Shown here: in pieces, positions 52,752-54,047 of the stretch
Layout of the letters: the number at the start of each line of letters is the position of its first letter
How positions within the stretch are numbered: position 1 is the stretch's first letter
Assembly (NCBI GenBank): GCA_944386325.1
Contig: CALXAP010000002.1
Coordinates: forward strand, 63,030-127,029
DNA length: 64,000 nt
Source: an uncultured Clostridia bacterium
Lineage (GTDB): Bacteria > Bacillota > Clostridia > TANB77 > CAG-508
Direction of reading: 5' to 3'
Position numbers and translations under genes: made by a program
Notes under the pieces: generated by a model
The model's input: the letters and a program-made list of their open reading frames with translations, nothing else
The model's database searches: none
Told to the model about the DNA's origin: nothing

Positions 52752-54047
52752 TTAAATTAATTCACATTTTGTATTCTTCATATTTTCTAATGATTCTATA
52801 AATGTATCTAAATCAAAAATCTTTTTATCTCCATTTTTTGTTTTTTCTACTTCTATACTATCTTCTGGTGTATTATTTCCTAATATTGCTACATAAGGTA
52901 TACCTAATATTTTGGCATTTCTTATTTTTTCACCTATACTCCCTTTCACATCATCTATTATAACATCTATATTTTTGTTGTTTAATATAGTATATAGTTC
53001 TTCTGCTCTTTCTTTATTCTTATCACTACTAATTATATATATATAATATGGTGTTACAGATATTGGTAGAGAATATCCAACCACTTTGCCGTTTTCCTCT
53101 ATTATATTATTTTCATATACTAATCCTAATACTCTACTTACACCTATTCCATAACAGCCCATATAAAATGGTTTGCTATTATTTTCGTTATCTATATAAT
53201 TAATATTCATTGTTTGAGAATACTTTGTTCCTAAAGCAAAAATATGACCTAATTCTAAAGCTTTTTCTTTATGAAAACTTTCTATACTATCTATTCCATA
53301 TATTTCTTTTAAATGTTCTTTTGCATCTTCTTTTTCTAAAACTTCTATATTTAATCCTTGTTTTGTTTCTGAATTATATAAAATAGTATCTTCTCCTATT
53401 CTTGATAATGCCATTATTTCTTCTGAATTTTTTCCACCTATATCTCCATTATCTGCAGCAACTGCTACTATTTCTATACCTAAATCTTTAAAAATTCTAA
53501 AATATGTTTCTTTTACTTTATTATATGCTTCTATCATTGACTTTTCGTCTTTGTCAAAAGTATATAAATCGAACATTAAAAATTCTTTTCCTCTTAATAA
53601 ATAACCTCTATTTCTTATTTCATTTCTAAACTTCTCACCTATTTGATAAAAAGCTACTGGTAATTGCTTATGAGAAGTTACCCTATTTTCTATAAAAATA
53701 GTAATTGCTTCTTCTGCTGTGGGAGCTAAGCAATAATTTCCTTTGTCCGTATTTGATGTCATCATTACACCATTTTCAACATATCCTTCATATCTTCCAG
53801 ATCTTCTCCATATTTCTTCTTGTTGTAATACAGGCATTTGTACTTCTATACAATCTATTTTGTCACAATGTTTTTTTATTATTTTTTCAATATTATCCTG
53901 TACTCTAAGAGGTATATTATCATATGCATATACACCACTTCCATATTGCCTTACTTGATTTGTTTGAATTAAGATATCTTGTGCTGGATACATCTCATCT
54001 AAATTACTTAATTTAATATTTTTCATTCCCATTTTTGAAATTCTCAC
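52752..54047 (-). CDS. proS: prolyl-tRNA synthetase paralog, bacterial-type but lacking the INS editing domain (431 aa), carried on the inserted element
   Basis: N-terminus MRISKMGMKNIKLSNLDEMYPAQDILIQTNQVRQYGSGVYAY matches the ProRS N-terminus. Motif 2 YQIGEKFRNEIRNRGYLLRGKEFLMFDLYTF matches E. coli ProRS [31 protein letters not shown]. It proceeds directly to motif 3 and the anticodon-binding domain with no ~180-aa insertion. Confidence 0.75.
   Translation of the reverse strand: MRISKMGMKNIKLSNLDEMYPAQDILIQTNQVRQYGSGVYAYDNIPLRVQDNIEKIIKKHCDKIDCIEVQMPVLQQEEIWRRSGRYEGYVENGVMMTSNTDKGNYCLAPTAEEAITIFIENRVTSHKQLPVAFYQIGEKFRNEIRNRGYLLRGKEFLMFDLYTFDKDEKSMIEAYNKVKETYFRIFKDLGIEIVAVAADNGDIGGKNSEEIMALSRIGEDTILYNSETKQGLNIEVLEKEDAKEHLKEIYGIDSIESFHKEKALELGHIFALGTKYSQTMNINYIDNENNSKPFYMGCYGIGVSRVLGLVYENNIIEENGKVVGYSLPISVTPYYIYIISSDKNKERAEELYTILNNKNIDVIIDDVKGSIGEKIRNAKILGIPYVAILGNNTPEDSIEVEKTKNGDKKIFDLDTFIESLENMKNTKCELI

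Follow-up and report, generated by a model that had tools for sequence, protein, structure and literature searches.

The island in feoB

The 64-kb stretch of DNA analysed here (the window) comes from an uncultured Clostridia bacterium (GenBank contig CALXAP010000002.1) and includes an 8.0-kb island carrying proS, a gene for a prolyl-tRNA synthetase (ProRS), at 52752..54047 on the minus strand. The island interrupts the iron transporter gene feoB, and Pfam matches placed the 5' part of this gene at 60526..61818 and the 3' part at 51712..52560, both on the minus strand. The 5' fragment encodes the G-domain, the helical domain and the start of the Gate domain and continues for 12 codons into the island before reaching a stop codon. 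The 3' fragment encodes FeoB_C and Gate domains. Identical 15-bp direct repeats (ACCATGTGCATGGGA) were found at the ends of the two fragments, at 60565..60579 and 52549..52563, and the unit from repeat to repeat is 8,016 bp. Joining the feoB halves over the repeat produced a 696-aa FeoB that aligned with intact FeoBs at 99% coverage. These repeats form the cores of the left and right attachment sites (attL and attR, respectively, both on the minus strand), with the island-side arms ATGACAATGTGGTA immediately inside attL and TACCAATATTGTTAC immediately inside attR, and they enclose an island body spanning 52564..60564. The element-side arms TACCAnnnTGTnAC and GTnACAnnnTGGTA make up an imperfect inverted repeat around the 15-bp core that is conserved in the window and in L008, L095 and L097 (L numbers designate the loci compared), and the island-side arms are common to islands of other genera.

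A large serine recombinase (LSR) belonging to a feoB-specific clade is encoded within the island at 58869..60482 on the plus strand. It contains the Resolvase (PF00239), Recombinase (PF07508) and Zn_ribbon_recom (PF13408) domains, and the residues Y38-A39-R40-V41-S42-T43 of the catalytic serine region are invariant in 30 homologs. Starting from the feoB_N side, the gene order is LSR, a 50-aa open reading frame (ORF), SNase-like, HEPN/MNT, DUF3006-like, orf110, MYG1/UPF0160 and proS, and the same island was found in L008, L092, L093 and L176-L189. The flanks are ordinary chromosome, with genes for rubrerythrin, tmk, dnaG, sigA, recG, scpB, aspS, mnmA, tuf, fusA, plsX, rnc and addB. The split feoB, the identical repeats and the LSR inside the island together bear out a preliminary description of this DNA, which had proposed that proS is borne by an element, and the LSR would have integrated the island, with proS in it, into the feoB coding sequence.

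Relatives with an unoccupied site were also found. L088-L090 carry dut-feoA-orf236-feoB-memb-tmk-dnaG-sigA with feoB intact, the same backbone as in the window, and in L088-L091 the intact feoB includes the core with one or two mismatches at the same codons. The nearest intact FeoB is just 66% identical. Relatives of the LSR are numerous (65–97% identity), and in five further island lineages (L092, L093, L095/96/99, L097 and L098) an LSR that is 63–84% identical adjoins a truncated feoB_N. The cargo differs between islands: some have the set of the window, in certain cases with MGMT, a P-type ATPase or an insertion sequence added, L095 has LemA and DUF3137, and L097 has ArsR with two heavy-metal ATPases. 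As related LSRs adjoin truncated feoB_N with differing cargo and the small ORF is conserved, these islands form a feoB-targeting family in which proS is the cargo of one sub-lineage. When metagenomes were scanned with the LSR alignment, just three close loci were recovered, and the remaining LSRs were distant and not near feoB. A phage origin was also considered and rejected, as searching viral contigs with the LSR gave no match and a tblastn search of phages and plasmids with the ProRS found only distant, ordinary proS genes.

In one relative, L009 (ProRS 81%, sigA 88% and aspS 77% identical), feoB, the LSR and MYG1 are gone and proS lies directly beside memb-tmk-dnaG-sigA, the neighbourhood that it has in the window. 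This arrangement could mean that proS is native to the locus and not cargo, with the element having landed beside it or the boundaries having been misread, and other genera show linkage of proS to scpB, which in the window is ~10 kb from proS. However, identical att cores flank proS in the window and L008 as well as in all same-species contigs spanning both junctions, feoB is contiguous with memb-tmk in the empty-site relatives with nothing between them, and loss of the feoB remnant by deletion explains the arrangement in L009. A native proS is therefore very unlikely, and the specific scenario raised by the L009 synteny and in the preliminary description, in which the element simply inserted next to the gene, is rejected in view of the feoB-memb-tmk contiguity and the position of proS between both att cores.

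Both halves of feoB are under purifying selection, with ratios of nonsynonymous to synonymous divergence (dN/dS) of 0.12–0.13 for feoB_N and 0.07 for feoB_C and no stops in either over a synonymous divergence (dS) of ~0.6, and the LSR is likewise constrained (dN/dS ~0.19). Had feoB already been non-functional when the window species split from the sister species represented by L008, it should have decayed. Hence, the gene is probably still used, most simply by precise excision of the island. A split-protein FeoB is a weaker alternative; the att core provides an in-frame ATG, at which the ORF of the 3' half starts, but without a Shine-Dalgarno sequence. The junctions expected after excision are ...CAGGCACTAACCATGTGCATGGGATTTGGTTGT... 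for attB and ...ATTGTTACTACCATGTGCATGGGAATGACAATG... for attP, and neither was found in the contigs examined. Two contigs from independent metagenome assemblies, L184 and L185, stop at the same base in the attR core (window position 52557, between ...ACCATGT and GCATGGGA), near the dyad centre. Of these, L185, at 7,955 bp, comprises little beyond the island and has no terminal repeat that would mark a circular contig. The shared ends may reflect mixed junctions or an assembler artefact and are a hint, not proof. One conceivable but doubtful role for the island is that of a domesticated switch, in which excision by the LSR would restore feoB and move the sole proS to a non-replicating circle, coupling iron uptake to a terminal or reversible state such as the sporulation mother cell or a transient, reintegrating episome. 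The essential nature of proS would then ensure that the germ line keeps the island and passes it on vertically.

A ProRS without the INS editing domain

The proS ORF is real and encodes 431 aa from a GTG start codon, with a Shine-Dalgarno sequence (GGGAG) 9 nt upstream. The N-terminus MR(I/V)SKMGMKN is kept across homologs; public annotations begin the gene at Met6, giving 426 aa. The Pfam scan identified tRNA-synt_2b (PF00587) at residues 101–314 (1.3e-31) and HGTP_anticodon (PF03129) at 339–422 (1e-13), with no match to PF09180 (ProRS-C_1). The protein belongs to TIGR00409 (proS_fam_II), scoring 369.1 bits against a cutoff of 306.7 with the match falling in two blocks. It falls outside the archaeal/eukaryote-like TIGR00408 (101.8 bits, cutoff 437) and outside NF008979/PRK12325, the alpha-proteobacterial enzymes lacking INS, which it matches in one end-to-end block (317.8 bits, cutoff 550). 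Alignment with solved ProRSs showed motif 2 (FRNEIRNRGYLLRGKEF) and motif 3 (GCYGIGVSR) to be intact, and FRNE...RGKEF and GCYGIGVSR are invariant in 27 ProRS homologs. The description of the product as a complete bacterial-type ProRS is borne out by the class II core, motifs 2 and 3, the HGTP domain and the TIGR00409 score, and the sequence predicts a catalytically intact enzyme.

The INS editing domain is indeed absent, as had been proposed. The alignment with the Staphylococcus aureus ProRS falls into two blocks (residues 23–269 with 23–269, and 258–422 with 399–561) that skip S. aureus residues 270–398, and residues ~237–403 of the Enterococcus faecalis enzyme correspond to only ~24 residues here. 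The missing part, between motifs 2 and 3, amounts to ~145–165 aa, slightly less than the ~180 aa first suggested. An AlphaFold model of moderate confidence (pLDDT 65.7), used only for a coarse fold match, superposes on bacterial ProRSs. The match to Rhodopseudomonas palustris 2i4l is near-equal in both directions (template modelling scores TMq 0.72 and TMt 0.70), and TMt is ~0.56 for the enzymes with INS.

The absence of INS is not unusual in this group of organisms, contrary to the earlier view. Hundreds of ~432-aa ProRS homologs without INS, with 73–77% identity, were found in metagenome-assembled genomes of gut Clostridia, and in other genera such genes occupy ordinary chromosomal settings (metK-proS-...-spoIIIA, proS-scpB-Asp23-xseA and scpB-proS-...-murC). 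The INS-less form is the norm for the lineage. In a neighbour-joining tree, the island ProRSs and that of L009 formed one clade, sister to the chromosomal INS-less group, a placement that counts against a resistance paralog.

Bacterial ProRSs that lack INS and rely on trans-editing are a known category, with ProXp-ala performing the editing (PMC10164551). By analogy, the window enzyme would charge tRNAPro without cis-editing and ProXp-ala would clear Ala-tRNAPro in trans. The preliminary description had also considered that an editing-deficient ProRS might be retained for deliberate mis-charging of tRNAPro, a form of adaptive mistranslation. The missing cis-editing domain would permit this, and no trans-editing gene (YbaK/ProXp) was found in the 64-kb window. 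Yet the INS-less form is lineage-wide and chromosomal, known INS-less bacteria use ProXp-ala in trans (PMC10164551), and the whole ProRS is under strong purifying selection, making deliberate mis-charging very improbable.

The gene appears to be transcribed alone. Its upstream region (54056..54120, minus strand), part of a block conserved with L007/L008, includes the Shine-Dalgarno sequence and a promoter-like site at 54109..54081 (TTGAAA-17-TATATT with TG). Promoter scanning performed at chance level (103 sites found, 100.5 expected), and the putative promoter is backed by the conservation of the upstream block. MYG1 on the 5' side would be closed by a terminator at 54299..54268, and a strong, bidirectional terminator-like hairpin with a 20-bp stem (52613..52659) lies between the proS stop codon and attR.

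Sole or additional proS

Compared with the sister species L008, proS has a dN/dS of 0.087 (0.07–0.09 overall) and a dS of 0.41, within the backbone range of 0.35–0.47. The dS values are 0.53–0.61 for the LSR, SNase and DUF3006 genes and 0.9–0.96 for MYG1 and orf110. The nucleotide identity profile was similar, with proS at 0.90–0.92, the level of the backbone, and the remainder of the island at 0.73–0.88. To survey the species, exact matches to two proteins, the rubrerythrin and the 426-aa ProRS, were looked up, each look-up covering 22 contigs from several samples, partly overlapping. The loci fetched were 99–100% identical to the window, every context returned bears the island with proS, and no empty site was found among these contigs. 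Retention of proS in L009 amid the decay of the island fits a gene that cannot be lost. By these measures, proS evolves as a core housekeeping gene.

The region between scpB and aspS provided further evidence. In the window this junction (41792..41818, minus strand) is empty, and scpB also abuts aspS in L009 and in those same-species contigs extending this far (L176-L180). In the outgroup L089 (sigA 89% and aspS 77% identical, feoB intact), an archaeal-type proS occupies the slot. A search of the 64-kb window for a second proS matched only proS itself, and among sequenced plasmids and phages (tblastn) the best ProRS matches were at most 38% identical and were ordinary proS genes.

The reading best supported by the fixation, the core-like evolution and the empty scpB-aspS slot is that proS is a housekeeping gene anchored on the island and most likely the working, and probably the sole, ProRS of the organism, with the insertion into feoB dating to the ancestor of the window species and its sister species. 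We place the probability of this whole reading at about 0.6. It corresponds to one of two alternatives in the preliminary description, namely that this is the only proS and, as essential cargo, keeps the element stable. The island proS would have replaced the proS that relatives keep beside scpB and aspS, although the direction of displacement is itself inferred. It would also anchor the island in the chromosome because loss of the island would mean loss of proS; if proS is the only copy, island loss would be lethal, which would explain the fixation.

Several observations weigh against this interpretation. The 64 kb visible is a part of the genome, and an archaeal-type or INS-containing proS could lie elsewhere, so that the absence of any further copy is presumed. 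The archaeal-type proS between scpB and aspS is documented in one outgroup lineage, L089, and the lack of a trans-editing gene in the window also counts on this side. Further, the purifying selection on the feoB halves and the LSR implies that the island still excises sometimes, which fits poorly with the sole copy of an essential gene being moved to a circle that does not replicate, except where excision is terminal or can be reversed. Finally, L018 bears the two types side by side, a complete archaeal-type ProRS directly adjoining an INS-less one. This last arrangement also favours a different explanation, that a housekeeping ProRS, for example of the archaeal type, is encoded elsewhere and that the island copy is an accessory paralog conferring inhibitor resistance or serving in a more specialised way, for example in stress tolerance or for a particular isoacceptor. 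Additional aminoacyl-tRNA synthetase (aaRS) copies are well established as antibiotic-resistance genes, and the island lineage has other accessory genes, encoding metal ATPases, a nuclease and a toxin-antitoxin pair. However, the constraint and synonymous divergence of proS match those of core genes, proS is present in every same-species context returned and is retained by L009 after the island decayed, the scpB-aspS slot is empty, and the plasmid and phage searches yielded no close relative. In addition, Rfam gave nothing for the proS leader at the gathering threshold or at E≤1, with no T-box or other inducible leader detected. We consider an accessory role unlikely. The original proposals of a paralog and of a resistance determinant are both disfavoured by the lack of a second proS in the window, the fixation in the species sample, the co-divergence with the backbone, the housekeeping-level constraint and the lack of close plasmid or phage relatives.

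Two of the loci discussed above show other unusual arrangements. In L089, an empty-site relative, the archaeal-type ProRS is in frame with AspRS (18885-22094) in an ORF of 1070 aa truncated at the edge of the locus, which is either a true ProRS-AspRS fusion or the product of a lost stop codon. In L018 (8995-12972), genes for a cyclophilin-type prolyl isomerase, the INS-less ProRS and the archaeal-type ProRS follow one another, and upstream of them is a transposase-like gene of the PDDEXK_2 type; a PDDEXK_2 gene is also beside proS in L004-L006.

The remaining island genes include a MYG1/UPF0160-family protein (54305..55375, minus strand), which is conserved 5' of proS in this island lineage, and orf110 (55660..55992, plus strand), which has no family match. 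Over these two genes (54305-55992), dS relative to L008, L092 and L093 is roughly double the value for the backbone and the neighbouring proS, which suggests that recombination exchanged this stretch with an island variant of greater divergence. They are followed by a gene for a DUF3006-like protein (56012..56584, minus strand) and a toxin-antitoxin-type pair (56795..57483, minus strand) made up of MNT (56795..57112) and HEPN (57088..57483). The presence of this pair varies within the species, as the region (56757-57634) was found in the window, L176 and L183-L185 and was absent from L177-L180 and from the sister species L008. A secreted or membrane SNase-like nuclease is encoded at 57697..58590 on the plus strand (PADLOC C3a212 'SNc+LTD'). 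The small ORF (58736..58888, plus strand), encoding 46–50 aa (MNEKYIKLKIEYIINKILYEKN...), overlaps the LSR start, was also called in L092, L093, L095 and L176-L185, and is near-identical in islands with unrelated cargo. It had no family match in PADLOC, the sole library scanned, and is a candidate recombination directionality factor or regulator. Inside attL, a hairpin read from the sequence (60505..60550) follows the LSR stop codon and overlaps that of the truncated feoB_N.

Elsewhere in the window, a palindromic repeat of ~250 bp resembling a miniature inverted-repeat transposable element, bounded by terminal inverted repeats of ~45 bp (TTGTTACAATTCACGGC...GCCGTGAATTGTAACAA) and containing an internal hairpin, is present in three copies (35071-35322, 45220-45453 and 63350-63598). 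It is recently mobile, as an additional copy lies between orf110 and MYG1 in only some same-species contigs (L178:5945-6177). A 2,478-aa giant surface protein with VWA and SdrD B-like domains (894-9315) adjoins a cohesin-domain protein, and a giant CLIPPER/SdrD_B protein is encoded at a similar place in L009. In the window and the same-species contigs, recG (43116-45164) lies between sigA and scpB, alongside tRNA-Met (45826-45902) in the window, and L009 and L089 do not have recG at this position.

Comparison with known systems

If the favoured reading is correct, a gene of the core translation machinery resides naturally on an excisable element, and the case illustrates both the irreversible anchoring of a mobile island and the island-mediated replacement of one aaRS type by another. 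Further, feoB would join the short list of genes kept intact though split by a recombinase element, and a connection of DNA rearrangement with iron uptake would become testable in uncultured gut Clostridia. Annotators would be cautioned that an aaRS found on an island is not automatically a resistance gene.

The island resembles the mobile or self-resistance aaRS systems (mupirocin ileS2/mupA, indolmycin-resistant TrpRS and borrelidin ThrRS) in having an aaRS gene on a mobile-type element. Unlike mobile resistance genes, proS does not have an accessory distribution, being invariably present in the species sample, absent from sequenced plasmids and phages and co-divergent with its host, and there was no sign in the 64-kb window of a sensitive housekeeping copy alongside it. 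It also differs from self-resistance genes, as there is no biosynthetic cluster near it.

With the INS-less ProRSs of R. palustris (2i4l), Caulobacter crescentus and Clostridium sticklandii, which function alongside ProXp-ala in trans, the window enzyme shares a class II core and an anticodon domain with INS gone. However, its sequence is nearer to Firmicute enzymes with INS, scoring 278 bits against S. aureus 5znj and 250 bits against E. faecalis 2j3l, than to 2i4l, for which the score is 195 bits. This, together with the score below the NF008979 cutoff, suggests an independent loss of INS. A further difference is that its gene sits on an integrative island.

The closest parallels to the island itself are the LSR gene-intervening elements of spore-formers, which restore the interrupted gene by excision, and 'regulated gene integrity' (PMC4191935, PMC5595907, PMC5025042, PMC7192596). 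As in skin in sigK, SPbeta in spsM and gin in gerE, the LSR gene is at one end of an element that splits a coding sequence, the ORF would be made whole by precise excision, and the interrupted gene and the recombinase have stayed intact over a long divergence. The hosts are likewise spore-forming Firmicutes, with relatives of the window organism carrying the spoIIIA operon. The feoB island differs in that its target is an iron transporter gene and not a sporulation gene, in that its cargo includes a core-like aaRS, and in being known from sequence alone. No precedent for feoB as a serine recombinase target or for essential aaRS genes on islands was found in the literature. While INS-less ProRSs and gene-intervening LSR islands were already known, feoB as the target and a core-like aaRS as the cargo are new.
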